A stretch of 43,954 nucleotides of DNA from an uncultured Rhizobiaceae bacterium. GTDB taxonomy: Bacteria; Pseudomonadota; Alphaproteobacteria; Rickettsiales; UBA1997. Made by a program: the position numbers and the translations under genes. The stretch is taken from positions 1 to 43,954 of the forward strand of contig CAZBNS010000002.1 of the NCBI GenBank assembly GCA_964493475.1. Reading direction: 5' to 3'. The notes beneath the pieces are model-generated. The model did not search any database. It was not told the DNA's origin and worked only from the letters and a program-made list of their open reading frames with translations. The stretch's first letter is position 1; the number at the start of each line of letters is the position of its first letter. Of the stretch, positions 1-38,607 are shown piece after piece.

Positions 1-55
1 CTAATCTTTCCCATCCTTGAGGGGAAATGTCAACGGAGTTGACAAAGGGGAGCTA
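1..55. repeat. Family-1 dispersed hairpin repeat (RPE/REP-like), cut by the window edge
   Basis: The unit is ctaatctttccc..gggaaa hairpin, then tgtcaac-gga-gttgaca hairpin, then aaggggagcta. The same ~50-nt unit recurs at 758-806, 8029-8078 and 10910-10958, and inverted at 16027-16066. Confidence 0.7.
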
Positions 56-93
56 TTTACAAAAACATATAATTAAAACTCCCAAATAAACAT

Positions 94-122
94 TTGACAA
101 ATAAAACCAAATAATTAACAAT
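94..122 (+). promoter_or_regulatory. Sigma70-like promoter of cassette copy 1 (TTGACA-N17-AACAAT)
   Basis: TTGACA lies at 94-99, followed by a 17-nt spacer and AACAAT at 117-122. The same hexamers and spacing occur in the two other cassette copies. Confidence 0.55.
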
Positions 123-126
123 TTGA

Positions 127-327
127 TTGCCTACGGGCAAAGTGATGGCTTAAAACACCAAAACCCAATTTTAATTTAGTTCGCAGGTCTTTGTTGTATC
201 TAACGATATAGCGGAGGCTTGCGGTTATAATGAATTATGTTTCATAATTCAAAAGGCTGTAAGGGCTGATTGGGTCAGTTGTTTTAACCTCCGCACTTTT
301 CAAATTATTTGAAGTGCGATTTTTATT
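127..327 (+). ncRNA. Conserved structured leader/ncRNA, copy 1 (unknown family)
   Basis: Helices read from the sequence: 5' hairpin ttgcc-UACG-ggcaa (127-140); hairpin tatc/gata (197-208); P1 gcggagg (211-217)/cctccgc (288-294); P2 cttgcgg (218-224)/ctgtaag (257-263) capped by gaattatg/cataattc (232-250); hairpin gctga/tcagt (265-279). Stems are supported by compensatory changes in copies 2 and 3. Confidence 0.7.
292..327 (+). terminator. Intrinsic terminator at the end of RNA copy 1
   Basis: Stem cgcactt (292-298)/aagtgcg (312-318) is followed by atttttatt. The 5' arm shares nt 292-294 with the P1 3' strand. Confidence 0.65.
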
Positions 328-347
328 AATTAAAAAAGAGGTAAAAT

Positions 348-671
348 ATGATGACTGATAAACTAAGAGAATTAAATAATCTTTTAAATCAGAAAATAGA
401 TGATAGTAAGAATAAGAATAATTCTTATAATAATAATCTCAAAGACGAAATAAATAACATTGAAAGAGAAATACTAGACAAGAAACTATTTCAATTAGAA
501 AGAAAAGCTTTCCAATATATAGTAAATAATAACTTTAATGCAAAACGAGATATAAGAACATTGAGAAGATTATTAAGATATATAGAAAGAACTCACGAAG
601 GAAAAAGAACTAATGAGTGTATGATTGAAAGAGTAGAGAATCTATTGGAAAGTGTGATAAAGAAAGATTAA
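348..671 (+). CDS. Small K/N/E/R-rich, probably helical protein of unknown function (cassette cargo 1)
   Basis: The ORF is 107 aa, with GAGGT (338-342) upstream of ATG 348/351. Its C-terminal segment QYIVNNN..RDIRTLRRLLRYIERT resembles RYYIDNK..GDVIGLRNLLNYIIKT of cargo 2. Confidence 0.6.
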   Translation: MMTDKLRELNNLLNQKIDDSKNKNNSYNNNLKDEINNIEREILDKKLFQLERKAFQYIVNNNFNAKRDIRTLRRLLRYIERTHEGKRTNECMIERVENLLESVIKKD

Positions 672-730
672 CAAAATAAAGAATTGAAAAACATAAGCTA
701 AAAAAGTGGAGCTAATAAAATAATTAAAAA

Positions 731-842
731 GTACCTCCTATTTGTCGTGTTGCGACATTTCCCATCAAGTAGGGGAAATGTCTGAAGGACAAAGGGGGGG
801 GGAGATACAAAACAACTTAAAGGGAGCTATAATAAAATAAAT
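731..842. repeat. Family-1 repeat, extended copy
   Basis: Core tttcccatcaagtaggggaaatgtctgaaggacaaagggg lies at 758-806. The 5' part cctatttgtcgtgttgcgac matches 15557-15576, and the tail aagggagcta..aaatggctgcaa matches 15625-15652. Confidence 0.65.
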
Positions 843-8028: not shown

Positions 8029-8078
8029 CAATCTTTCCACTCCTTGAGGGTCAATATCTGAAGGACAAAGGGGAGCTA
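8029..8078. repeat. Family-1 repeat copy
   Basis: The sequence is caatctttccactccttgagggtcaatatctgaaggacaaaggggagcta. Confidence 0.7.
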
Positions 8079-9903: not shown

Positions 9904-10443
9904 ATGAATATATTAAAAAATCCAATATTAAATTTAAAAACAGACGCTTCAACCTTAGCTGTCGACTTAGCAATTACTAAGAATTTTCTTAAAGTTGATT
10001 TTGGCGATGACGACGAATTAATTATAAAAATGATTAAAACAGCCGCCAGCCAATGCGAAACCCATATTGGCAAAACATTAGTTGAAAAAACTTATGTTTA
10101 TTCTTTGTATGAATTAAAAAGTAGCTCAATTATTCTTCCTTATTCTCCAATAAAATCAATTAATGAAATAAAGAACAGTGATTTAAATAATATAAGTGCG
10201 ATAATACCATCATTTGATTATATTTTAGACAATATTGGCGGAATATTAAACTTTATAAAAAAACCAGAAAATTTTTACAGACTTGACATAGAATATACAG
10301 CAGGTTTAACAACAATTAATGATGAATTAATTCAAGCACTGCTAATGCACATATCAAGAATGTATGAAGACAGAAGCGGCTATTCGCCAATTCCTACAAA
10401 TTCTTTAAATATTTACAAAAAATATAGACAAATTAAATTATAA
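9904..10443 (+). CDS. Phage/GTA head-tail connector protein (gp6-like)
   Basis: The N-terminus L..LK..L.VD..DDDELI..MI.TA...CE..IGK.L resembles gp6-type head-tail connectors (RcGTA g6-like position). Confidence 0.7.
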   Translation: MNILKNPILNLKTDASTLAVDLAITKNFLKVDFGDDDELIIKMIKTAASQCETHIGKTLVEKTYVYSLYELKSSSIILPYSPIKSINEIKNSDLNNISAIIPSFDYILDNIGGILNFIKKPENFYRLDIEYTAGLTTINDELIQALLMHISRMYEDRSGYSPIPTNSLNIYKKYRQIKL

Positions 10444-10444
10444 T

Positions 10445-10774
10445 ATGACAGAAAAAAAATTAGTTGATAGATTAAACAAAAGAATAAAAATACAAGCAAA
10501 AACCAACAACAACGATGGTTTTGGCGGCTATTTGGAAACATGGAGTGATTCAAAAATTTTGTGGGCAGAAATTAGACCTGTTTCAAATCTTGATAGTTTT
10601 AGAGGAAAAAGAATTGAAGAAAAAATCACCCATATAATAACAATAAGACATTATGCCCCACTCACAACACAGCATAGAATAAAATACAAAAACAGAATAT
10701 TTGGTATTGTAGGCATTATAAATACGCTTGAAAACAATCAAACTATGGAAATTAGAGCAGAGGAAATATTGTAA
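10445..10774 (+). CDS. Phage/GTA head-tail adaptor (head-closure, SPP1 gp16-like)
   Basis: LNKRIKIQ......DGFGG..ETWSD....WAEIRP.S is typical of head-tail joining proteins. The gene starts 1 nt after the connector gene. Confidence 0.7.
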   Translation: MTEKKLVDRLNKRIKIQAKTNNNDGFGGYLETWSDSKILWAEIRPVSNLDSFRGKRIEEKITHIITIRHYAPLTTQHRIKYKNRIFGIVGIINTLENNQTMEIRAEEIL

Positions 10775-10817: not shown

Positions 10818-10958
10818 AATCTTTCCCTCTGCCCTCACCACCACACTAATCTTTCCCCTCTGCCTTCACCACTACACTAATCTTTCCCCTCCGCCTTCGC
10901 CACTACACTAATCTTTCCCCTCCTTGAGGGGAAATGTCCGAAGGACAAAGGGGAGCTA
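10818..10958. repeat. Tandem array of the family-1 5' half (three units of 30-31 nt) fused to one complete family-1 unit
   Basis: Units aatctttccc(c)tc(t/c)gcc(c/t)t(c)(a/g)cca(c)c(a/t)acact lie at 10818-10847, 10848-10878 and 10879-10909. A full element follows at 10910-10958. Confidence 0.8.
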
Positions 10959-11017
10959 AGCTCACTTGCCTCAATTCACTTATTATAATTCATTTCTATA
11001 ACTTATTTATTATAAAT

Positions 11018-11299
11018 TTACTTAATCCTATTAATAACCTTACTTAACCTTTCAAACTTCTTTTCTTCATCATATTTAACTCTACAAGTTTTAATTATAT
11101 AATTAAGTAAGTTTCTTAAACCTATTACATCTCCTCTTACTATTATTTTATTATCAATGTAGTATCTTAATATTTCTTTTATTGGTTCTATTAAGTCTTC
11201 ATTAATTGAGTTATTAATTTTGATTTTCTTTTCGAAATCTTTTTCTTTTTGTAGAAGATATAATTTTTTGAATAAATCGTTTTTCATCAGTTCGTCCAT
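11018..11299 (-). CDS. Small helical protein of unknown function (cassette cargo 2)
   Basis: The ORF track starts at 11311. That ATG overlaps the GAGGT that aligns with the SD of copies 1 and 3, so ATG 11299 (MDELMKND..., 93 aa) is the likelier start. It is a paralog of cargo 1 by C-terminal similarity. Confidence 0.6.
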   Translation of the reverse strand: MDELMKNDLFKKLYLLQKEKDFEKKIKINNSINEDLIEPIKEILRYYIDNKIIVRGDVIGLRNLLNYIIKTCRVKYDEEKKFERLSKVINRIK

Positions 11300-11320
11300 T
11301 TTAGACCTCATTTTTTAATT

Positions 11321-11352
11321 AATAAAAATCGCACCATTCTAAGAAAAGTGCG
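11321..11352 (-). terminator. Intrinsic terminator at the end of RNA copy 2
   Basis: On the minus strand, stem cgcac (11352-11348)/gtgcg (11334-11330) is followed by atttttatt. Confidence 0.6.
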
Positions 11353-11514
11353 GAGGTTAAACTAACTGACACTATCAGCTCTCACAGCCTTTTAGACTAT
11401 AAATAGCCTATTATAACCGCAAGCCTCCGCTATATCGTTAGATACAACAAAAGCCTGCAGACTAAATTAAATAGTGTTTCGGTAGTTTACACCGTCAACT
11501 TTGCCCGTAGGCAA
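11321..11514 (-). ncRNA. Conserved structured leader/ncRNA, copy 2
   Basis: The reverse complement aligns with 127-327, and a 41-nt run equals 191-231 exactly. It has the same ttgcc-UACG-ggcaa 5' hairpin (11501-11514). The P2 apical hairpin changes to taggcta/tagtcta (11393-11410). Confidence 0.7.
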
Positions 11515-11518
11515 TTCA

Positions 11519-11547
11519 ATTATTAATTGTTTTAATTAAGATGTCAA
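11519..11547 (-). promoter_or_regulatory. Sigma70-like promoter of cassette copy 2 (TTGACA-N17-AATAAT)
   Basis: On the minus strand, TTGACA is at 11547-11542, followed by a 17-nt spacer and AATAAT at 11524-11519. The -35 element abuts the gatA stop codon. Confidence 0.55.
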
Positions 11548-13014
11548 TTATTTATTTTCTTCAATGAATAAAGCGAAATCCAGCGTGCTTTGCTCGTCAA
11601 AATGTCTACCTATAAACTGCATACCAATTGGCAATCCGATTTTTGAAAGACCAAAAGGAACGCTTATTCCTGGCAATCCGCACATATTTACTGCATTTAT
11701 GAAATAATCATTCACAATGCCCCTTTTACTGATTATTTTGCTTTCTTCTGGAGTTGGATTGATTGGAAAAGCGGTTCCTGCGTCTGTTGGTGTGAAAATT
11801 ATGTCAACATTTTTGAATGCTTCATCAAACTCGTTTGCTATTTTTCTTCTTATTTTCTGTGATTTGATAAAATATTTTTCATAATTTTCTGATGAAGAAA
11901 GATAATATCCTAAAAGTATTCTTTTTTTGATGTTCTCTCCAAAACCTTCGCTTCTTGATTTAATATAAACATCCTCATAAGTGCTGCATTTTTCGTCTGT
12001 TTTTCTGCCATATCTAATGCCACTATATCTTGCAAGGTTTGAAGCTAATTCTGTATAAGATAAAGAAATATATAACAAGGAGCTTGCGGTAATTGTTGGA
12101 ATTGAAACTTCAATTACTTCTGCGCCGCCTTGTTTTAATAATTTAACAGCCTTTAAATAGGCGTCTTTAATGTCTGGCTCTATGTCGTCTAAATAATCAT
12201 TAAATTCTTTTATTAAAGCAACTTTTTTGCCTTTTATGTTTGAATTTAAGTTCTTTAAGAAGTCTGGTAAATCATGCTCAACTGTTGTGGAATCCTTATC
12301 GTCCTTTCCGCAAACTAAATGCGTTAAATATGCGCAATCTTTTACATCTTTTGTTAAAAAACCGCCTTGATCCAAAGAGCTTGCGTAAGCGACCATTCCA
12401 TATCTTGAAATTCTTCCATATGTTGGCTTTAAACCAACTAAATTGCATAGCGATGCTGGCTGTCTAATTGAACCTCCTGTATCGCTGCCTGTTGCTCCAA
12501 AACACATGTTTGCAGCAACAGCAACTGCTGAACCGCCAGACGAACCGCCCGGAACTAAATCTCTATCATCATTGTGTGCCTTATAAGGATTTACACATAC
12601 GCCAAAATGGCTCGTTTTGTTGGTGCTGCTCGCTGCGAATTCATCCATATTTGTTTTTCCAACTAATATATATCCTTCATCATTAAGAATTTTCGTAGCT
12701 GTTGACTCATAAGGAGGAACAAAGTTTTCTAATACTCCGGAACCAGCTGTAGTTCTAATTCCCTTAGTGCAAAATAAATCTTTTATCGCTAAAGGAATGC
12801 CTTCAAGTTTTCCAATATTTTTGCCTTCTGCAATTTTTTTATCTGAGGTTTTAGCCCTTTCTCTCGCCAAGTCAAAAGTTTCAGTGATAAAAGCATTTAA
12901 TTTTCTTTTGTTTTCAATATTTGAAATACAAGCGTTGGTTAATTCAAGACTTGAAAATTTTTTGTCCTTAAGGCCTTTTTTTGCTTCAAGCAAAGTTAAT
13001 TTTGTTAATTCCAT
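11548..13014 (-). CDS. gatA: Glutamyl-tRNA(Gln) amidotransferase subunit A
   Basis: The amidase signature GGSSGGSAVAVAA...GSDTGGSIRQPA is present. Size is 488 aa, and gatC lies upstream. Confidence 0.95.
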   Translation of the reverse strand: MELTKLTLLEAKKGLKDKKFSSLELTNACISNIENKRKLNAFITETFDLARERAKTSDKKIAEGKNIGKLEGIPLAIKDLFCTKGIRTTAGSGVLENFVPPYESTATKILNDEGYILVGKTNMDEFAASSTNKTSHFGVCVNPYKAHNDDRDLVPGGSSGGSAVAVAANMCFGATGSDTGGSIRQPASLCNLVGLKPTYGRISRYGMVAYASSLDQGGFLTKDVKDCAYLTHLVCGKDDKDSTTVEHDLPDFLKNLNSNIKGKKVALIKEFNDYLDDIEPDIKDAYLKAVKLLKQGGAEVIEVSIPTITASSLLYISLSYTELASNLARYSGIRYGRKTDEKCSTYEDVYIKSRSEGFGENIKKRILLGYYLSSSENYEKYFIKSQKIRRKIANEFDEAFKNVDIIFTPTDAGTAFPINPTPEESKIISKRGIVNDYFINAVNMCGLPGISVPFGLSKIGLPIGMQFIGRHFDEQSTLDFALFIEENK

Positions 13015-15041: not shown

Positions 15042-15116
15042 TGGAGCGGGTGACGGGGCTTGAACCCGCGACCCCAACCTTGGCAAGGTTGTGCTCTACC
15101 ACTGAGCTACGCCCGC
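15042..15116 (-). tRNA. tRNA-Gly (GCC)
   Basis: The reverse complement folds as a cloverleaf with anticodon loop ttGCCaa. The 3' CCA is encoded. There is one C6-A67 mismatch in the acceptor stem. Confidence 0.9.
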
Positions 15117-15312
15117 TTCAACGACATTGACATTGTAAATTTTAAGTTTTTAAAAATCAAGAGAATATTTTAATTTTTGATATTATATATTATCAGAGTT
15201 TTCAATGAGACTACAAACAGTTCTCTTTTACTTTTTAGAGATTTAATTATTGAATTTATTCAAGTCAAATATTATAAAGTAATGAAAGGAAGTTATTAAA
15301 ATGGCAACATAA

Positions 15313-15387
<75 letters not shown>

Positions 15388-15547
15388 GTATATAAAAAAT
15401 ATATAAAATGTTTTCAAATAATCAATAGAAAAGTGAATCAAATAGAACAACTATACACTTTGAGACTTTAAATAGTCCATCTTTGTCATGTTCTGCTATT
15501 CCAATTTGCTATTTTTATAATTCCTTTTTTCTCTTCTTGTAAGCTGT

Positions 15548-15589
15548 TTATAGCTCCCATTTCGTGTTGCGACAAAGGGGAGCTATAAA
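15548..15589. repeat. Family-1-related perfect 10-bp inverted repeat
   Basis: tatagctccc (15550-15559) pairs with gggagctata (15578-15587), separated by an 18-nt spacer atttcgtgttgcgacaaag. Confidence 0.7.
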
Positions 15590-15703
15590 TTAATTATAAC
15601 AGGAGAAATTTTGAGGAGAAACAAAAATGGCTGCAACAAATGGGAGCTACTAATAATTATATCAATATATATTAGATAATGCCATAAAACATGTTAAAAT
15701 TAA

Positions 15704-15787
15704 TGGTACCCTCGGTCAGACTTGAACTGACACGCCGTGAAGCAATAGATTTTGAGTCTATCGTGTCTACCATTCCACCACGAGGGC
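15704..15787 (-). tRNA. tRNA-Leu (CAA)
   Basis: It has a long variable arm and anticodon loop ctCAAaa. CCA is encoded and length is 84 nt. Confidence 0.9.
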
Positions 15788-15795
15788 ATGAAAGA

Positions 15796-15873
15796 TGGGG
15801 TATGTAGTGGGATTCGAACCCACGACCAACGGAATCACAACCCGCTACTCTAACCAGCTGAGCCATACATACC
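15796..15873 (-). tRNA. tRNA-His (GTG) with encoded G-1
   Basis: An extra 5' G precedes the acceptor stem gtatgta/tacatac. The anticodon loop is ttGTGat and CCA is encoded. Confidence 0.9.
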
Positions 15874-16026
15874 ATCACCATAACAGTAATAATAATACAT
15901 GGCTTTTTTTTAGTCAAGCAATTTTAATTTGTTGTCTGGCGGTTGCTATGTTTTCTGCTTTTGAATTGTAATAATGTCTTTGTTAACTTTATTGAGACTT
16001 TTTTGTTATAAGAGGTGATTAAGTTG

Positions 16027-16066
16027 TTTATAGCTCCCCTTTGCCTTTCAGATATTTCTCCTTTCT
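16027..16066. repeat. Family-1 repeat, inverted orientation, degenerate
   Basis: tttatagctcccctttgcctttcagatatttctcctttc is the reverse complement of the ..gaaatgtctgaaggacaaaggggagcta core. Confidence 0.6.
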
Positions 16067-21103: not shown

Positions 21104-21196
21104 AAACTTGTAATTTATTAACACAATTAAAATATAGAATTAAAAATTATTTTATCAATAAGCGTTAATCATAATATTAAAGCAAAACCAAATAAA

Positions 21197-21225
21197 TTGA
21201 CAATTAATTTCAAATATTTAACAAT
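21197..21225 (+). promoter_or_regulatory. Sigma70-like promoter of cassette copy 3 (TTGACA-N17-AACAAT)
   Basis: TTGACA lies at 21197-21202, followed by a 17-nt spacer and AACAAT at 21220-21225. Confidence 0.55.
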
Positions 21226-21230
21226 GAATT

Positions 21231-21428
21231 TGTCTTAAGAAGACCTTAAGACATTGTTGATGGTTTAAAACACCAAAAAGCGATTAGATGATGTCGTAAG
21301 TCTTTGTTATGCAAAGCATAGCGGAGGCTTACGGTTATAATGAGTTGCATTTGCAGCTTAAAAGGCTGTAAGAGCTGATCGCTTCAGTTGTTTTAACCTC
21401 CGCACTTTTATCAGTGCGATTTTTATTA
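21231..21428 (+). ncRNA. Conserved structured leader/ncRNA, copy 3 (most diverged)
   Basis: The 5' hairpin is replaced by tgtcttaag/cttaagaca (21231-21253). Hairpin tatgc/gcata lies at 21308-21320. P1 is gcggagg (21321-21327)/cctccgc (21397-21403). P2 is cttacgg/ctgtaag, with apical hairpin agttgc/gcagct (21343-21358). Confidence 0.7.
21401..21428 (+). terminator. Intrinsic terminator at the end of RNA copy 3
   Basis: Stem cgcact (21401-21406)/agtgcg (21413-21418) is followed by atttttatta. It overlaps the P1 3' strand by 3 nt. Confidence 0.6.
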
Positions 21429-21450
21429 ATTAGAATAAAAGAGGTTTGAA

Positions 21451-21882
21451 ATGATAGAAGATGAATTATATAATCCCGGTGAAGAAGAATTTAAAGTTGA
21501 TAAAACACTAAATAAAAAAAGCATAAAAGAAGAGATGAAAATTAGCAGAATGTTAATTAACATAAATGAAATTCAAAATTTAATAGATTGTTTTGAATTA
21601 AATAATCATTTTTCAAATGATTATAACTATAAGGAAATATTAAATACAAATAATTGCCATTATTTAGAAAATCTTTTTAAAGCAAAAATATTAGAATTAA
21701 ATATAATAATCATAAAAAACTATTTGGAAGTTAATAAATTTAATTTCAATTTTGATAAGCTAAAAAAATCAAGAAAAATAATGGACAAGCTGTTGAAAGT
21801 CTACAGTTGCTCGCAAGAAAAGGCTGTAAAAAAAATTAAAGAACTGATTGCTTGGAGTGGTATTGAGGAAAGGGAAGTTTGA
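21451..21882 (+). CDS. Small K/N/E-rich protein of unknown function (cassette cargo 3)
   Basis: This 143-aa ORF has AGAGGT 7 nt upstream of its ATG. It shows only faint similarity to cargos 1 and 2 (NYLEVNKFN...KIMDKLLKVY). Confidence 0.55.
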   Translation: MIEDELYNPGEEEFKVDKTLNKKSIKEEMKISRMLININEIQNLIDCFELNNHFSNDYNYKEILNTNNCHYLENLFKAKILELNIIIIKNYLEVNKFNFNFDKLKKSRKIMDKLLKVYSCSQEKAVKKIKELIAWSGIEEREV

Positions 21883-21987: not shown

Positions 21988-23493
21988 ATGCAGCAAAATC
22001 AGATAACCAATACTAATACTCAAGAAGATATTGCCGAAACTGATGAAGATACGATTGGCGTTGGCAGCTCGAAACAAAGTAAAATGATTTTAATCGTTTT
22101 TATAGTTGTATTTGTTTCCACTGTTATATATTTTCTTTTCTTGAAAGAGCCGGCTGATACTACTGTGGGACCAAGCACTGATGAAATAGTTATTCAAAAA
22201 GGCGGACAGCCAACTAGAGGGGTTAGCATTGATTATAATATTTCAGATTTGTTGGATGTGGCTCCAACTGATGATAGATTTTTAACTCCTCAAACACAAG
22301 ATACAGTTCCAGCTTTACCGGAATTGCCGTCATTGCCGGAAGAAATAAGGCAACAGATTGCTAGTGGAGAAAAGAAAGATGAAAAAACATTCACTAAAGA
22401 AGAAGTTGATAAAATGATTAGCGATAGGTTAAAAGAGGCTATGGAGCAACAAATGGAAGCTATAACAAAGCTTAGTGCGCAACAACAGCCTAGAGATGAA
22501 GTAAGAACTGCAGCACCTGCGGGTATTGTGATAACTCCTCCTAGACAACAACAGCCTGTGAGAGCTGGAGATCCAACATCTATAAGTCTTCCTGGAGATG
22601 CTACGGCTGGACTTGATACTGCGAACATGACAGACGAAGAAATTTTAACTGCGCAGCAAAAAAAAGAAGCTGAGGCATTAGAGAAAATTAAAAAAGATAA
22701 AATTTTACAAGAAAGAAAAGTTGCGCCTATGTTTAAAGTGAGTTCTGGAACAGGACCTGCTAAAAGTAGTCTTGACACTTCTGATTTTATTATACTATCT
22801 TATACTGACAACAAACTTGACATTCAAAATAAAACGCCTGATGTTATACCGACACAAGTTACGGACTTAACGAGAGTGATATTGCAGGGAAAAGTTATAA
22901 GCGCAGTTCTTGAAACGGCTATAGATACTGATATAGCTTCAACAGTAAGAGCAGTAATTACAAGAGACATATATGCTGAAGAAGGCAAAAACATTCTAAT
23001 ACCAAAAGGCTCAAGAGTTATTGGAAATTATGAAACTAATATAACATCAGGACAAACAAGAGTTACAATTAATTGGAATAGAATTATAAGAGTTGATGGA
23101 ATGAGCTTAAATATAGCTTCTATTGGCGCAGATAGGCTTGGAAGAGCTGGTGTTGCGGGTGATTTAGATAATAGATATGCTCAACGTTTGGCAAATTCAT
23201 TCTTATCAAGTGTTTTAAGTGTTGGTACCTCCTTAGCTGTTGAAAAAGTTAGCGGTTCTACTGGAATTACAAATACAATAAGCTCTTTAACTGGAGAATC
23301 TACTACAACAAGTGGAAAAGCGTCAGATTATGCTTTAATACAAGCTACAAAAGATTTTATGAGTGATGCCCAAGATATAGTAGACGATATAGCCGAACAA
23401 AAACCTGTAATTAGAATTCCGCAGGGTGAAAAAGTAATGATTATGGTTACTCAAGATTTAACCCTTCCAGTATATAAAAGGAGTAATAGATAA
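21988..23493 (+). CDS. virB10: Type IV secretion system protein VirB10
   Basis: It has an N-terminal TM helix, a P/Q-rich linker and a C-terminal TrbI/VirB10 barrel region (VISAVLETAIDTD....V.A.ITRDIY...GK.ILIPKGSRVIG.Y). Confidence 0.9.
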   Translation: MQQNQITNTNTQEDIAETDEDTIGVGSSKQSKMILIVFIVVFVSTVIYFLFLKEPADTTVGPSTDEIVIQKGGQPTRGVSIDYNISDLLDVAPTDDRFLTPQTQDTVPALPELPSLPEEIRQQIASGEKKDEKTFTKEEVDKMISDRLKEAMEQQMEAITKLSAQQQPRDEVRTAAPAGIVITPPRQQQPVRAGDPTSISLPGDATAGLDTANMTDEEILTAQQKKEAEALEKIKKDKILQERKVAPMFKVSSGTGPAKSSLDTSDFIILSYTDNKLDIQNKTPDVIPTQVTDLTRVILQGKVISAVLETAIDTDIASTVRAVITRDIYAEEGKNILIPKGSRVIGNYETNITSGQTRVTINWNRIIRVDGMSLNIASIGADRLGRAGVAGDLDNRYAQRLANSFLSSVLSVGTSLAVEKVSGSTGITNTISSLTGESTTTSGKASDYALIQATKDFMSDAQDIVDDIAEQKPVIRIPQGEKVMIMVTQDLTLPVYKRSNR

Positions 23494-24485
23494 TGCATAA
23501 TTTTGAAGCTCTTGAAGTCTATTTAAAACCTATAAATTACATTTTACAACAGGAAGGAATAACTGAAATATCAATTAATAAGGCCAATGAAGCTTGGGTA
23601 GAAAAAAAAGGCGACATGTTTAAAGTTGAAATGCCCGGATATGATTTAAAACATTTAAAATCATTAGGAAGACTAATCGCACAGGCTACGGATCAGAAAA
23701 TAAGTGAAGAAACCCCATTGCTATCAGCAACATTGCCTTCTGGATATAGAATTCAGGTTGTTTTTCCACCAGCATGTGAAAATGACACAGTAATCATGTC
23801 TATCAGAAAAAAGAGTGATATAGTATGGTCGCTTGATGATTATGAAAAAATGGGAGCATTTTCAACAACTTCTGTTGGTGCGGTTAAAGATGACTCAAAC
23901 GTTATTTTATCTAAGCTTTTAAAAGCAAATATGATAAAAGAATTTTTATACAAAGCAATTTTAAGCAAAAAAAACTTAATTATTTCCGGTGGTACTTCAA
24001 CAGGTAAAACCACTTTTACTAACGCCTGTCTAAAAGCAATTCCAAGAGTTGAAAGACTAATAACCGTTGAAGACGCCAGAGAAATAGATTTAGGTTGGCT
24101 TCCAAATAAGGTTCACCTATTAGCTTCAAAAGGCGGACAAGGAAGAGCAAATGTAACGGCTCAAGATTTAATTGAAGCTTGCTTGAGGTTAAGACCTGAT
24201 AGAATAATAGTGGGAGAGTTGAGAGGAAAAGAAGCTTTTTCATTCTTAAGAGCGATAAACACAGGACACCCTGGTTCTATTTCCACACTTCACGCTGACA
24301 CTCCTAAAATGGCTTTACAACAGCTAAAGTTAATGGTTATGCAGGCTGGATTAGGTATGCCTCCCGATGATATATTTAATTATATTAATAATGTTATTGA
24401 TATAGTAGTTCAGTTAAAAAGAGGCGCAAAAGGAGTTAGATATATATCTGAGGTTTATTTTAGAGATTTTAATCAGAATATATAG
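23493..24485 (+). CDS. virB11: Type IV secretion system ATPase VirB11
   Basis: Walker A GGTSTGKTT, ITVEDAREI, GELRG and the His box TGHPGSISTLHA are present. A TAATG overlap couples it to virB10. Confidence 0.93.
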   Translation: MHNFEALEVYLKPINYILQQEGITEISINKANEAWVEKKGDMFKVEMPGYDLKHLKSLGRLIAQATDQKISEETPLLSATLPSGYRIQVVFPPACENDTVIMSIRKKSDIVWSLDDYEKMGAFSTTSVGAVKDDSNVILSKLLKANMIKEFLYKAILSKKNLIISGGTSTGKTTFTNACLKAIPRVERLITVEDAREIDLGWLPNKVHLLASKGGQGRANVTAQDLIEACLRLRPDRIIVGELRGKEAFSFLRAINTGHPGSISTLHADTPKMALQQLKLMVMQAGLGMPPDDIFNYINNVIDIVVQLKRGAKGVRYISEVYFRDFNQNI

Positions 24486-24507
24486 TATAGTTATTATATT
24501 AAATAAC

Positions 24508-24563
24508 TGGATTCCCGCTTGTGTAAAGGACAAATAGGATGCATTACAAAATATTTTAGCTTT
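24508..24563. repeat. Family-2 repeat copy
   Basis: ctggattcccgc..aaaggacaaataggatgcattacaaaatattttagcttt matches 3162-3273. Confidence 0.55.
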
Positions 24564-24685
24564 GGGATATACTCTATATAGCTAAACTATTACTTTACTT
24601 TTAATAATTTTATTATAATATCTTATTGTTTGCTGTATTTTGAGATGGCAAATGTTTATTAAATTATTAATTATATTTACTCAAA

Positions 24686-24961
24686 ATGTCTATAGAAAAA
24701 AATAAAAAAAGCGAACTCATTAAAGAGTTTGGAAATAAAGAATCTGATACTGGTTCCGTTGAAGTTCAAGTTGCGGTTCTAACTGAAAGAATTAAAAATG
24801 TTACAGAGCACTGCAAAACTCATGCTAAAGATTTCTCTTCAAGAAGAGGATTGTTGATGTTGGTTGCTAGAAGAAAAAGATTATTGGCTTACTTAAAAAG
24901 AAAATCCACAGAAAGATTTAATGCTTTAATTGAAAAATTGGGTTTGAAAGATAATAAATAG
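24686..24961 (+). CDS. rpsO: 30S ribosomal protein S15
   Basis: [17 protein letters not shown]...H.KD..SRRGLL.LV..RRRLL.YL is present. Confidence 0.97.
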
Positions 24962-24966
24962 GAATT

Positions 24967-27087
24967 TTGATGTTTGAAATAAAAAGAAAAGAGATGGAGT
25001 GGGGCGGAAAAAAATTAAGTTTGGAAACTGGTAGAATTGGAAGGCAAGCAAGTTCGGTTATTGTTAGATATGGAAAGACTGTTGTAATGTGCAATGTAAC
25101 GGTTGCAAAAAAAGAAACAACAGGCATAGATTTTATACCATTAACTGTTTCTTATATTGAAAAATTTTATTCTGCTGGAAAAATACCTGGTGGATTTATA
25201 AAAAGAGAAACAAAACCTTCTGATAATGAAACATTAATTGCAAGAGCAATTGATAGGCCAATTAGACCTTTGTTCCCTTCAAATTATAGATATGAAACGA
25301 ATATTTTTTGTACTTTAATTGCTTATGATGAAGCTTGTCCGGTTGATGTTATTGCAATGATTGGGGCTTCTACAGCTTTAAGTATTTCACGAGCGCCTTT
25401 TGAAGATGTTATCGCAGGTGCAAAAGTGAGCTATAAAAATGGTGAGTATTTGCTAAATCAAGTAGAACCGTTTGAAAATAATGGTAAATTAGATTTAACT
25501 GTTGCTGGAACAAAAGATTCAATTTTAATGGTTGAATCTGAAGCAAAAGAATTAAGCGAAACTGAAATGTTAAAAGCATTGGCTTTCGGACATGCTGAAT
25601 TAGGCAAAGTTGTTGATTTTATTAAATCATTTATTGCAGAATGCAAAGTTGAAAAATTAAAAATTGAAGAACAAGATTTTTCACAATTAGAAAAAGATAT
25701 TGCTGATTTTGCAACAACAGATATTAAAGAAGCATACAATATAGTAGCAAAGCAGGAAAGAGTATCTAAAATTGAAGAAATAACTGAAAAAATTAGGGAA
25801 AAGTTTGTTGGAGAAAGTGAAGACGAAACTTTATCTAATAAAGTTGATGAAATTCAAAGAGATATTGAAAGAGATATCGTTAGAAAAATGGTTCTTAGCG
25901 AAGGCAAAAGAATTGATGGAAGAAAAGTAAATCAAGTTAGGCCTATCAAATCCGAAATTGATATATTGCCGATTGTTCATGGTTCCGCTCTATTTACTAG
26001 AGGCGAAACTCAAGCATTGGTTATCACAACGCTTGGTTCAGAGCATGACGAACAATTATTAGATAATATTTCTGAAGCTGAAGATAGCCAAGATTTCTTA
26101 TTGCATTATAATTTTCCTCCTTATGCGGTTGGTGAAGTTGGTGCATTAAGAGCTCCGGGCAGAAGAGAAATCGGACATGGCAAACTAGCGTGGAAAGCAA
26201 TTCATAATATAATCGACAAAAAAGACTTCCCTTATACTATAAGAGTTGTATCTGAAATCACGGAATCAAATGGCTCTTCGTCAATGGCTACAGTTTGCGG
26301 AACTTCATTGTCTTTAATGGCAAGCGGCGTTCCTATGAAAGCCCCAGTATCTGGTATTGCTATGGGTTTAATTAAAGAGAAAGATAGTTTTGTAGTTTTA
26401 AGCGATATTATGGGCGATGAAGATCACTTGGGCGATATGGATTTCAAGGTTGCTGGAACAAAAGATGGTATTACAGCGCTTCAAATGGATATTAAATGCA
26501 AGGGCGTAAATGAAGAAATTATGACTGTTGCATTAAACCAAGCGAAAGACGGCAGATTTCATATTCTTGAAAAAATGGCTGAAGCCATAGGGGAATCAAG
26601 GCCTGATATTTCCGAAACTGCACCAAGACCTTTGACTATGAAAATTAAAACAGAAAAAATCAAAGAAGTAATTGGACCTAAAGGCAAGAATATCAAAGAG
26701 ATTATTGAAAAAACTGGAACTTCTATTGATATTTCTGATGATGGAACCGTTGTTATTATGTCAAACAATCCAGAAAACAGCGAGGCTGCTAAAAAATTAA
26801 TTGAAGCAATCGTTGGCGGTGGAAAAAGCGAACTAGAAATGGGAAAAATATATGAAGGAAAAGTATTAAAAGTTGTTGAGTTTGGTGCCTTTGTTGATTT
26901 ACCGGGAAAGGATGATGGATTTATTCATATTAGCCAATTAGCTGATTACAGAGTTGAATTTGTTGATGACATCATTCATGAAGGCGACATTGTAAAAGTT
27001 AAATTAATTGGTTTTGATAAAAATAATAAACCTAAGTTAAGCTACAAGGTTGTAAATCAAAAAACCGGTGAGGATTTAGAAAAATAA
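24967..27087 (+). CDS. pnp: Polyribonucleotide nucleotidyltransferase (PNPase)
   Basis: It has two RNase PH domains, a KH domain and a C-terminal S1 domain. Size is 706 aa and it lies downstream of rpsO. Confidence 0.97.
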   Translation: MMFEIKRKEMEWGGKKLSLETGRIGRQASSVIVRYGKTVVMCNVTVAKKETTGIDFIPLTVSYIEKFYSAGKIPGGFIKRETKPSDNETLIARAIDRPIRPLFPSNYRYETNIFCTLIAYDEACPVDVIAMIGASTALSISRAPFEDVIAGAKVSYKNGEYLLNQVEPFENNGKLDLTVAGTKDSILMVESEAKELSETEMLKALAFGHAELGKVVDFIKSFIAECKVEKLKIEEQDFSQLEKDIADFATTDIKEAYNIVAKQERVSKIEEITEKIREKFVGESEDETLSNKVDEIQRDIERDIVRKMVLSEGKRIDGRKVNQVRPIKSEIDILPIVHGSALFTRGETQALVITTLGSEHDEQLLDNISEAEDSQDFLLHYNFPPYAVGEVGALRAPGRREIGHGKLAWKAIHNIIDKKDFPYTIRVVSEITESNGSSSMATVCGTSLSLMASGVPMKAPVSGIAMGLIKEKDSFVVLSDIMGDEDHLGDMDFKVAGTKDGITALQMDIKCKGVNEEIMTVALNQAKDGRFHILEKMAEAIGESRPDISETAPRPLTMKIKTEKIKEVIGPKGKNIKEIIEKTGTSIDISDDGTVVIMSNNPENSEAAKKLIEAIVGGGKSELEMGKIYEGKVLKVVEFGAFVDLPGKDDGFIHISQLADYRVEFVDDIIHEGDIVKVKLIGFDKNNKPKLSYKVVNQKTGEDLEK

Positions 27088-38532: not shown

Positions 38533-38607
38533 TGGAGGTCGGGGTCAGAATCGAACTGACGCATAGAAGCTTTGCAGGCCACGGCATTACCACTTTGCTA
38601 CCCGACC
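38533..38607 (-). tRNA. tRNA-Cys (GCA)
   Basis: The acceptor stem is ggtcggg/cccgacc, the discriminator is U, the D stem has 3 bp and the anticodon loop is ctGCAaa. CCA is encoded. There is one U-U mismatch in the anticodon stem. Confidence 0.85.

Follow-up and report, generated by a model that had tools for sequence, protein, structure and literature searches.

A multicopy family of structured leader RNAs preceding orphan small-protein genes in uncultivated Rickettsiales

Organization of the leader unit next to gatA

The window analysed here is a whole stretch of 43,954 nucleotides (nt) from an uncultured bacterium of the order Rickettsiales (contig CAZBNS010000002.1 of assembly GCA_964493475.1, positions 1 to 43,954). 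It has a GC content of 30% and a gene content typical of Rickettsiales, including gatC/gatA, recA, acpS, dapB, ruvX, virB10/virB11, and head genes resembling those of gene-transfer agents (GTAs). The element under study, copy 2, is a unit on the minus strand in which a promoter and a structured leader RNA of about 190 nt precede an open reading frame (ORF) for a small protein, referred to as the cargo. The −35 box of the promoter directly abuts the stop codon TAA (11548–11550) of an Amidase-family ORF, gatA, which follows gatC; this arrangement had been pointed out in an earlier note on this DNA. The promoter is of the sigma-70 type and matches 11 of 12 consensus positions, and transcription is predicted to start at approximately position 11512. 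The GC content of the leader (11321–11514) is 39%, compared with 22% in the coding sequence behind it. The unit can be divided into the following features, where SD denotes the Shine-Dalgarno sequence:

11547 to 11018, minus strand: copy 2, in the order promoter, GC-enriched segment of ~190 nt, stem-loop with U-run, GAGGT, ORF
11519..11547, minus strand: promoter, −35 box TTGACA (11542–11547), 17-nt spacer, −10 box AATAAT (11519–11524)
11501..11514, minus strand: H1, hairpin UUGCC-UACG-GGCAA with a UNCG-type tetraloop
11480..11494, minus strand: H2, hairpin CGGU-GUAAACU-ACCG, the loop of which contains Y
11483–11489, minus strand: Y, UAAACUA in the H2 loop, partner of Y' at 11358–11364
11471..11477, minus strand: X, ACACUAU, 5' strand of helix X:X'
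11419..11458, minus strand: LH, G·U-rich hairpin with 5' strand 11441–11458, loop UAAC, and 3' strand 11419–11436
11424–11430, minus strand: GCGGAGG, 5' strand of P1, inside the 3' strand of LH
11417–11423, minus strand: CUUGCGG, 5' strand of P2, partly sequestered by LH
11393..11410, minus strand: apical hairpin UAGGCUA-UUUA-UAGUCUA, on top of P2
11381..11387, minus strand: CUGUGAG, 3' strand of P2, partner of CUUGCGG at 11417–11423
11365..11379, minus strand: P3, invariant stem GCUG/CAGU with X' as its loop
11369–11375, minus strand: X', AUAGUGU, the P3 loop
11358..11364, minus strand: Y', UAGUUUA, partner of the H2 loop, in the joiner just before CCUCCGC
11350..11356, minus strand: CCUCCGC, 3' strand of P1 (the candidate antiterminator), overlapping the 5' half of the terminator; also the anti-SD
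11321..11352, minus strand: intrinsic terminator, CGCAC...GUGCG (~9 bp when extended in copy 2) followed by AUUUUUAUU
11018..11309, minus strand: SD GAGGU (11305–11309) and coding sequence of cargo 2, from ATG 11299 to the stop codon at 11018–11020, 93 amino acids (aa) with four predicted helices

The list of ORFs places the start of cargo 2 at ATG 11311, a triplet that overlaps GAGGT 11305–11309 and has no SD of its own. ATG 11299, which the earlier note had preferred, is located 5 nt past GAGGT. At the position of 11311, homologues have TTG or AAG, or a triplet that is out of frame (L005, L014, L008b), and the layout of GAGG, 5–8 nt, and ATG is conserved among them. Furthermore, all six database clusters of the cargo 2 protein (6/6), one of which includes a gene call on the same contig, have a length of 93 aa. 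The comparison with homologues supports ATG 11299 as the start of cargo 2.

Copies of the leader inside and outside the window

The reverse complement of copy 2 (approximately 11298–11557) can be aligned with positions 84–347 of the plus strand with 79.6% identity over 270 nt (E-value 1.9e-60), which bears out the earlier alignment of 11321–11514, reverse complemented, with 127–327. A 41-nt core is present exactly twice in the window, compared with zero occurrences expected by chance. The segment 11321–11514 of copy 2 is a paralogue of the segment 127–327 of copy 1. A third copy, more diverged than the other two, has a similarity span of 21188–21450.

94..671, plus strand: copy 1, promoter from 94, leader 127–327, coding sequence 348–671 (107 aa, type A cargo)
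21197..21882, plus strand: copy 3, promoter from 21197, leader to 21427, coding sequence 21451–21882 (143 aa, type C cargo)

A pattern scan of the GTDB species representatives identified 13 loci, all of them from two metagenome-assembled genomes (MAGs) of Rickettsiales. Profile searches of the sequences of these 13 loci added three further divergent copies, and a looser pattern scan of metagenomes added five. Protein-first look-ups, which start from homologues of the cargo and are blind to the leader RNA, provided contigs for loci L015, L022, and L023, and the leader was found upstream of the gene in all three cases (3/3); no contig could be retrieved for P0005, P0010, and P0013. In total, 25 usable copies were obtained from the two MAGs and several metagenomes, and one MAG contains at least 12 of them. 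All 25 copies point towards a downstream ORF, a pseudogene, or the remnant of an ORF. Two additional metagenome matches, L016 and L017, were rejected as chance fits to the search pattern.

Several of the units are incomplete. The type B genes at L008 (663–850) and L019 (3363–3690) contain premature stops at codons 19 and 17, respectively, behind leaders that are largely intact, and L019 has an insertion of ~45 nt between the terminator and the SD. At L020 (105–260, minus strand), the leader is truncated at its 5' end, an unrelated hairpin of 13 perfectly paired bp, CTGCAGGAAGGGG...CCCCTTCCTGCAG, takes the place of LH, and GCGGAGG is not sequestered. No ORF follows this leader, and the promoter of the next unit begins ~30 nt past the terminator.

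The same pattern scan applied to viral contigs gave no matches, and neither did a search of phages. A plasmid origin was considered and rejected: the only matches were marginal AT-rich ones to Borrelia blyB (E-value 1e-3), which had no support at the protein level. Searching the whole window against Rfam at gathering thresholds returned only five tRNAs, and a permissive search (E-value up to 10) of copies 2, 3, and L022 against the 4227 families of Rfam 15 returned nothing consistent. GcvB (RF00022) matched copy 3 only (21291–21426, plus strand), with 22.9 bits compared with a gathering threshold of 42, and was rejected as a chance match. A hairpin, a G/U-rich stretch, and a terminator account for the score; copy 2 and L022 do not match the model, the posterior probabilities are low, and GcvB belongs to the wrong phylum. 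A hammerhead-like reading of GUGAUGG...CCGAAAC was ruled out on inspection, and no ribozyme model of Rfam fits. A literature search found no description of the leader element.

Covariation defines the structure of the leader

Covariation was evaluated by counting base pairs in a MAFFT alignment of 23 sequences, using shuffled and slid alignments as controls. Between copies 1 and 2, 13 of the 70 modelled pairs differ: eight are compensated by two-sided changes, four are kept through wobble pairing, and one terminal pair is broken. Twelve of the 13 differing pairs remain paired, in agreement with the claim that the substitutions in copy 2 preserve pairing, and an outcome in which as many pairs are broken as kept is excluded.

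RNAalifold run on the 23 copies independently gives H2, P1, P2, the apical hairpin, and P3, the same model as the fold of P1, P2, and P3 put forward earlier. By pair counting, 94.7% of the cells are paired, compared with 34–45% in the slid controls, and 20 pairs have two-sided changes, a number reached by none of 500 shuffles. The earlier fold had missed X:X', Y:Y', and LH. The 54-pair structure that includes these helices has 92.4% of 1175 cells paired, again compared with 34–45% in slid controls, and contains 29 pairs with two-sided changes, which is matched by 0 of 500 shuffles. The folding z-scores range from −6.2 to −7.5. P1 shows no covariation and P3 is invariant; compensatory changes thus lend no support to the helices on which the regulatory logic of the earlier fold was built.

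The apical hairpin and H2, both described in the earlier note, are strongly supported by covariation. All eight pairs of the apical hairpin have two-sided changes and 99.3% of its cells are paired in the 23 copies; its strands are GAATTATG/CATAATTC in copy 1 and TAGGCTA/TAGTCTA (11393–11410) in copy 2. H2, the second hairpin compared there, is CGGT..ACCG in copy 2 and TGG..CCA in copy 1; 13 copies close it with U-A, six with C-G, and three with G-C. The H1 sequence is kept in 20 of 23 copies, with two-sided changes in four pairs. In copy 3 and the divergent leaders, H1 is replaced by different hairpins that are still self-complementary.

P2 of copy 2 (CTTGCGG/CTGTGAG) is fully paired, with one U-A pair changed to U·G, as had been read from the sequence. 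P2 is 100% paired in the alignment, and five of its pairs have one-sided changes only, all of which are transitions and all of which are tolerated. Eight haplotype combinations of P2 occur in the 25 copies, each with 7/7 pairs, for which the chance estimate from sequence is ~5%.

Two helices connect distant parts of the leader. In X:X', six of seven pairs have two-sided changes, and the central bases vary in nearly every copy while complementarity is kept. A full Watson-Crick match of 6–7 nt between cognate X and X' is present in 20 of 25 copies, compared with 6% of the non-cognate combinations; X is mismatched to X' in two copies, L003 and L013a. In Y:Y', 95% of the cells are paired and four of eight pairs covary. 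The variants of Y:Y' include UUAAAACA/UGUUUUAA, UUCAAAAA/UUUUUGAA, UAAGAAA/UUUCUUA, and UUCAUAC/GUAUGAA, as well as a matched 1-nt deletion.

LH has a length of 18–20 bp. Its 18 pairs are 91.6% paired, five with two-sided and eight with one-sided changes; column pair 79/124, for example, is C-G in 10 copies, U-A in six, and U·G in three. LH is an element of the minimum free energy (MFE) structure in all three copies of the window, and has on its own a folding energy of −27.8 kcal/mol (z-score −6.9). In the divergent leaders L013b, L014b, L021a, and L022, GGAGG is sequestered by a different pyrimidine 5' strand, CCUCUCUUU, in a shorter hairpin that is compatible with P2. The use of unlike strands indicates that the sequestration is conserved, not the sequence. 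The G·U-rich pairing of the leader can form on one strand only, because the other strand would contain C·A; the structure is thus one of the RNA.

The terminator stem CGCAC/GUGCG does not vary (22 of 22 copies) and runs into (A/U)UUUUUAUU, whereas its loop does vary. This agrees with the earlier description of a kept stem and T-run. A simple terminator scan misses the copy 2 terminator, since the 5-bp core stem leaves a loop larger than the 8-nt limit of the scan.

In the ground state of the leader, Y:Y' and X:X' close a junction that carries LH and P2 with its apical hairpin, and the terminator follows directly. Y:Y' and X:X' could coexist with H2 and P3 as loop-strand pseudoknots, or the two sets of helices could be mutual alternatives. 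Several conserved joiners of the leader that contain AGG or GGA are single-stranded.

Competing pairings and proposed control of the downstream gene

P1 (GCGGAGG/CCUCCGC) is perfect in 22 of the 25 copies, has a wobble pair in one, and is mismatched in two. The formation of P1 requires GCGGAGG, which is locked in LH, and P1 crosses X:X' and Y:Y'; P1 and the ground state are mutually exclusive. CCUCCGC is complementary to GCGGAGG, and AACCUC is able to pair with the SD sequence GAGGU. The SD and anti-SD are paired in the MFE structures of 14 of 23 full-length leaders. The order promoter, leader, SD, and ATG is found on one strand in about 22 of 25 copies. The spacing and sequence between the terminator and the SD are conserved for all three ORF families, likewise in about 22 of the 25 copies. 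The SD and start codon are positioned approximately 15–20 nt past the terminator. The ORFs have no promoters of their own, and the expression of the downstream gene would consequently require read-through of the leader terminator.

The structure and its position suggest that copy 2 is probably one of at least 25 lineage-specific cis-acting leaders of ~190 nt, each with its own promoter and terminator, that throttle the expression of orphan small-protein genes. We infer from the arrangement of the pairings that this control would combine transcription attenuation with masking of the SD. LH would serve as an anti-antiterminator that locks GCGGAGG, whereas P1, stacked on P2, would be an antiterminator that competes with the terminator through CCUCCGC. 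By default, transcription would end at the terminator, and the SD would be masked by the anti-SD. A trans-acting factor that opens LH, X, and Y could shift the leader to a form with P1 and P2, in which termination would be suppressed and the SD freed. Candidate factors are a protein of the RNA-binding or chaperone type, processing of the 20-bp hairpin, and temperature; a metabolite appears less likely. The energy gap between the folds and the nature of the regulated genes disfavour a metabolite, and favour a protein, processing, or a physical signal.

Several results weigh against attenuation by the leader. P1 has neither covariation nor compensatory changes, and its mismatches in L006 (A·C) and L022 (C·C) are left uncompensated. 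A forced P1 costs every copy 3–17 kcal/mol, whether or not the terminator has already been transcribed, and LH is transcribed and closed before CCUCCGC is made. The energy gap and the early closure of LH imply that switching needs an active factor. In copy 2, the predicted probability of pairing between the SD and anti-SD is only 0.25. Furthermore, leaders occur beside a broken ORF (L008a, L019) or without an ORF (L020, L021a), which fits an RNA with its own function. Finally, all copies are from one narrow clade, and kinship inflates some of the counts.

The leaders that lack a functional gene raise the alternative that the unit is a free-standing gene of a small RNA (sRNA), the product of which is the terminated transcript of ~190 nt. 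It would act in trans, by pairing or by titrating a protein, and the ORF would be expressed through leaky read-through. In its favour, a near-consensus promoter and a canonical terminator belong to the unit itself, the fold is compact and very stable with the terminator present in every MFE structure, and conservation of the RNA far exceeds that of the ORFs. The persistence of leaders with pseudogenised or missing ORFs (L008a, L019, L020, L021a) would be expected of an sRNA, and the conserved single-stranded AGG/GGA joiners could be binding sites. However, the copies without ORFs appear to be decaying: L008a has lost its promoter, the 5' part of L020 has been replaced, and L021a has lost the terminator. 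The preserved spacing and sequence from terminator to SD in front of three promoterless ORF families, and the complementarity of CCUCC to both the SD and GCGGAGG, are hard to fit with an RNA that acts purely in trans, and no trans target was found. We consider a free-standing sRNA gene, although the strongest of the alternatives, rather unlikely. The conserved linkage of terminator and SD, together with the anti-SD, argues that the RNA works at least partly by control in cis.

Cargo proteins

The leaders precede three families of ORFs. Type A proteins, represented by the cargo of copy 1, have ~107 aa and begin with MMT(D/E)KL..., type B proteins (copy 2) have ~93 aa and begin with MDELMKNDL..., and type C proteins (copy 3) have ~140 aa. 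Types A and B are homologous across their C-terminal 61 residues (hhalign probability 93%, E-value 2.5e-7), whereas neither a common sequence family nor a common fold with them was detectable for type C. The C-terminal similarity of cargo 1 and cargo 2 seen in the earlier note is supported as homology. The ratio of nonsynonymous to synonymous substitution rates (dN/dS) in the cargo families is 0.09–0.29, dS ranges from 0.65 to saturated, and the lengths of the proteins are conserved. These values are those of real genes that are under purifying selection and evolve fast. Because the cargo is selected at such synonymous divergence, the conserved blocks of the leader must also be under constraint.

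The cargo has no significant matches in Pfam, PHROGs, PADLOC, or NCBIfam, and the only match among PDB sequence profiles was M2-1 with an E-value of 0.19. The AlphaFold2 model of the cargo consists of four helices and is of low confidence, with a predicted local distance difference test score (pLDDT) of 64 and a predicted template modelling score (pTM) of 0.32; Foldseek found no match to it in the PDB below an E-value of 1. When 1.84 billion representatives were searched exhaustively by profile, only 10 clusters of the cargo came up, all of 90–112 aa.

The occurrence of one leader in front of three cargo families would place all of them under one signal, as an RNA-level regulon. Alternatively, the RNA and the small protein may form a module in which they act jointly and the terminator sets their ratio, either by autoregulation, with the cargo binding its leader as happens for ribosomal-protein leaders and the cspA 5' UTR, or in the manner of type III toxin-antitoxin systems. 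The gene order of RNA, terminator, and small protein resembles that of ToxIN-type loci, the units occur in many copies within a restricted lineage and encode fast-evolving proteins, and the conserved C-terminal domain of types A and B could be an RNA-binding surface. Nevertheless, we regard such a module as very unlikely. The leader contains no tandem RNA repeat array, the cargo is unmatched in PADLOC, Pfam, NCBIfam, PHROGs, and the PDB, and the AlphaFold model is of low confidence (pLDDT 64). Type C proteins are unrelated to the other two yet use the same leader, and the units are located in housekeeping neighbourhoods, not in defence islands.

Genomic context and origin of the mosaic units

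The similarity among the copies spans from the −35 region to the stop codon of the ORF, and there is no shared structure at the ends. The unit is not delimited by terminal repeats, an integrase, a transposase, att-like ends, or target duplications. It lies among housekeeping genes, and its neighbours are acpS, recA, gatCA, dapB, ruvX, and virB10/11. At L021 (470–1160), the gatA stop codon is directly followed by a degenerate leader that ends with CCTCCGCACTTTC and lacks the 3' half of the terminator and an ORF. Behind this leader there are ~250 nt of C-rich repeats of the CTGTCAAGAC type on the given strand, a spacer, inverted copies of the CTTGACAGG type, and a complete type C unit. Comparison of L021 with the window indicates that the gatA-adjacent leader site is old and its content remodelled, which points to vertical inheritance with recombination among paralogues.

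Two promoter modules, TTGACA-17-TAAnAAT and the TTGCAA-type CTTGCAAAATAATTTCC...TATAAT, are freely combined with cargo types A, B, and C and with variants of H2 and Y (L002–L023 and the copies of the window). The mixed modules indicate recombination or gene conversion among paralogous units. Together with the mismatch between X and X' in L003 and L013a, they make recombination among paralogues a better explanation of the mosaic than transposition.

GC-rich palindromic repeats with the core ACATTTCCCCTCAAGGAGGGGAAA are located at 1–57 (minus strand), 721–800 (plus strand), 8057–8076, 10818–10960 (minus strand), and 15583–16033. They are flanked by GCTCCCCTTTGTC and small tetraloop hairpins, their inverted copies bracket copy 1, and they have the look of repetitive extragenic palindromic (REP) or Rickettsia palindromic (RPE) elements. 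The family is present genome-wide and in related MAGs, often but not always beside leader units. One member lies behind copy 2:

10818..10960, minus strand: repeat element, GC-rich palindrome and 31-nt tandem array of 3.4 units (10818–10922)

The element begins ~62 nt past the stop codon behind both copies 1 and 2, close to the ~60 nt given earlier for the two copies. The tandem array, however, is present only behind copy 2, whereas copy 1 has the palindromic core alone. The repeat element is probably not part of the leader unit; it could form the 3' end of the mRNA.

The multiple units, the mixing of two promoter modules with three cargo types, and the palindromic repeats on both sides of copy 1 and downstream of copy 2 might be taken as signs of a mobile DNA cassette, similar to integron cassettes or miniature inverted-repeat transposable elements (MITEs), in which the inverted repeats would be DNA recombination sites instead of RNA structure. 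This explanation is extremely improbable. The helices rely on G·U pairs and are specific to one strand, as expected at the RNA level, and the unit is not marked out by terminal repeats, target duplications, an integrase, or a transposase. The similarity is limited to the segment from the −35 box through the ORF stop, a related organism likewise carries a leader at the gatA-adjacent site, no viral contig, phage, or plasmid matches were obtained, and the flanking repeats are found elsewhere as well. Regarding integron cassettes in particular, neither a shared end structure nor a nearby integrase was found, in an analysis that did not include a dedicated attC model. The earlier term of a cassette with interchangeable cargo consequently overstates the mobility of the unit, given the absence of terminal repeats, integrase, and att-like ends and the occupied site at L021.

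A further possibility is that the promoter and leader together form a portable RNA-level regulon tag that has repeatedly been recombined in front of unrelated small ORFs of this Rickettsiales lineage. X:X' and Y:Y' would be kept distinct against mis-pairing in trans among the dozen or more paralogous leaders of one cell, and the terminated RNA of ~190 nt would have a regulatory part of its own, for instance as a titrant of the LH-opening factor. We think this possibility unlikely. If true, it would represent a new multicopy RNA switch or RNA-protein module, beyond an ordinary attenuator.

Copy 3 and its 143-aa cargo are positioned directly upstream of genes of a type IV secretion system (T4SS), virB10 (TrbI domain) and virB11 (T2SSE), and of a 706-aa ORF (21988–27087, plus strand), all of which are oriented alike. 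This association may be incidental, because the type C cargo of L021 is not beside T4SS genes. Approximately 45 nt past the far end of the repeat array behind copy 2, positions 9904–10774 (plus strand) contain adjacent genes for a phage gp6-like head-tail connector and a head completion protein, which look like remnants of an alphaproteobacterial GTA or of a prophage. The five tRNA genes of the window are located at 15045–15872 and 38536–38607 (minus strand), four of them within ~830 nt amid fragments of the GC-rich repeats.

Significance and comparison with known systems

If the leader acts in cis as proposed, it would constitute an undescribed RNA family with unusually clear covariation that controls a whole set of orphan small proteins in uncultivated Rickettsiales. 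Little is known about RNA-based regulation in this group, and the identity of the effector could reveal a signal sensed by these intracellular bacteria. The leader would also be a compact system for the study of anti-antiterminator, antiterminator, and terminator design. In practical terms, a start codon is corrected, a transcription unit beside gatA is delimited, and an alignment is available from which to build a covariance model for annotating these loci in MAGs.

Two kinds of leader find no counterpart here. For a metabolite riboswitch, there is no association with a metabolic or transport pathway, and the leader precedes orphan helical proteins. A leader-peptide attenuator was rejected as no mini-ORF is conserved: GGAGG is followed by AUG in copies 1 and 3, and by AUA in copy 2 and most others. 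The sequence ATGGCTTAA is present in copy 1 only.

ToxIN-like type III toxin-antitoxin loci have the same order of promoter, structured RNA, terminator limiting expression, and small-protein gene. They differ in their tandem antitoxin repeats, which were not found within the leader, and in their toxin, since the cargo is not recognisable as an endoribonuclease and has no match in PADLOC or Pfam.

The 5' untranslated regions of the cspA family are long, conserved, conformation-switching leaders of paralogous small-protein genes. The leaders described here share this arrangement and are likewise better conserved than expected, and temperature or protein sensing of this sort would fit the leader of copy 2. 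The cargo, however, is all-helical and does not have the oligonucleotide/oligosaccharide-binding (OB) fold of cold-shock proteins, the leader contains an intrinsic terminator, and there is no similarity between the two in sequence or in covariance models.

The S-box/SAM-I, pyr, and trp attenuators likewise consist of a structured leader with an intrinsic terminator just before the SD. As in these attenuators, one segment, CCUCCGC, belongs to the terminator and is also complementary to an upstream segment, GCGGAGG, which is itself sequestered by a third strand, in LH. In contrast to them, the leader has no match in Rfam, its genes are orphans instead of metabolic or transport genes, no leader peptide is conserved, and there are at least 12 copies per genome. 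The proposed anti-antiterminator is also far more stable here than the candidate antiterminator, which makes an equilibrium driven by a metabolite unlikely. The leader family is undescribed, although its kind, the structured attenuating leader, is already known. Its context is unusual: at least 12 copies in a MAG, orphan small proteins as cargo, swappable promoters, and two hypervariable long-range helices.

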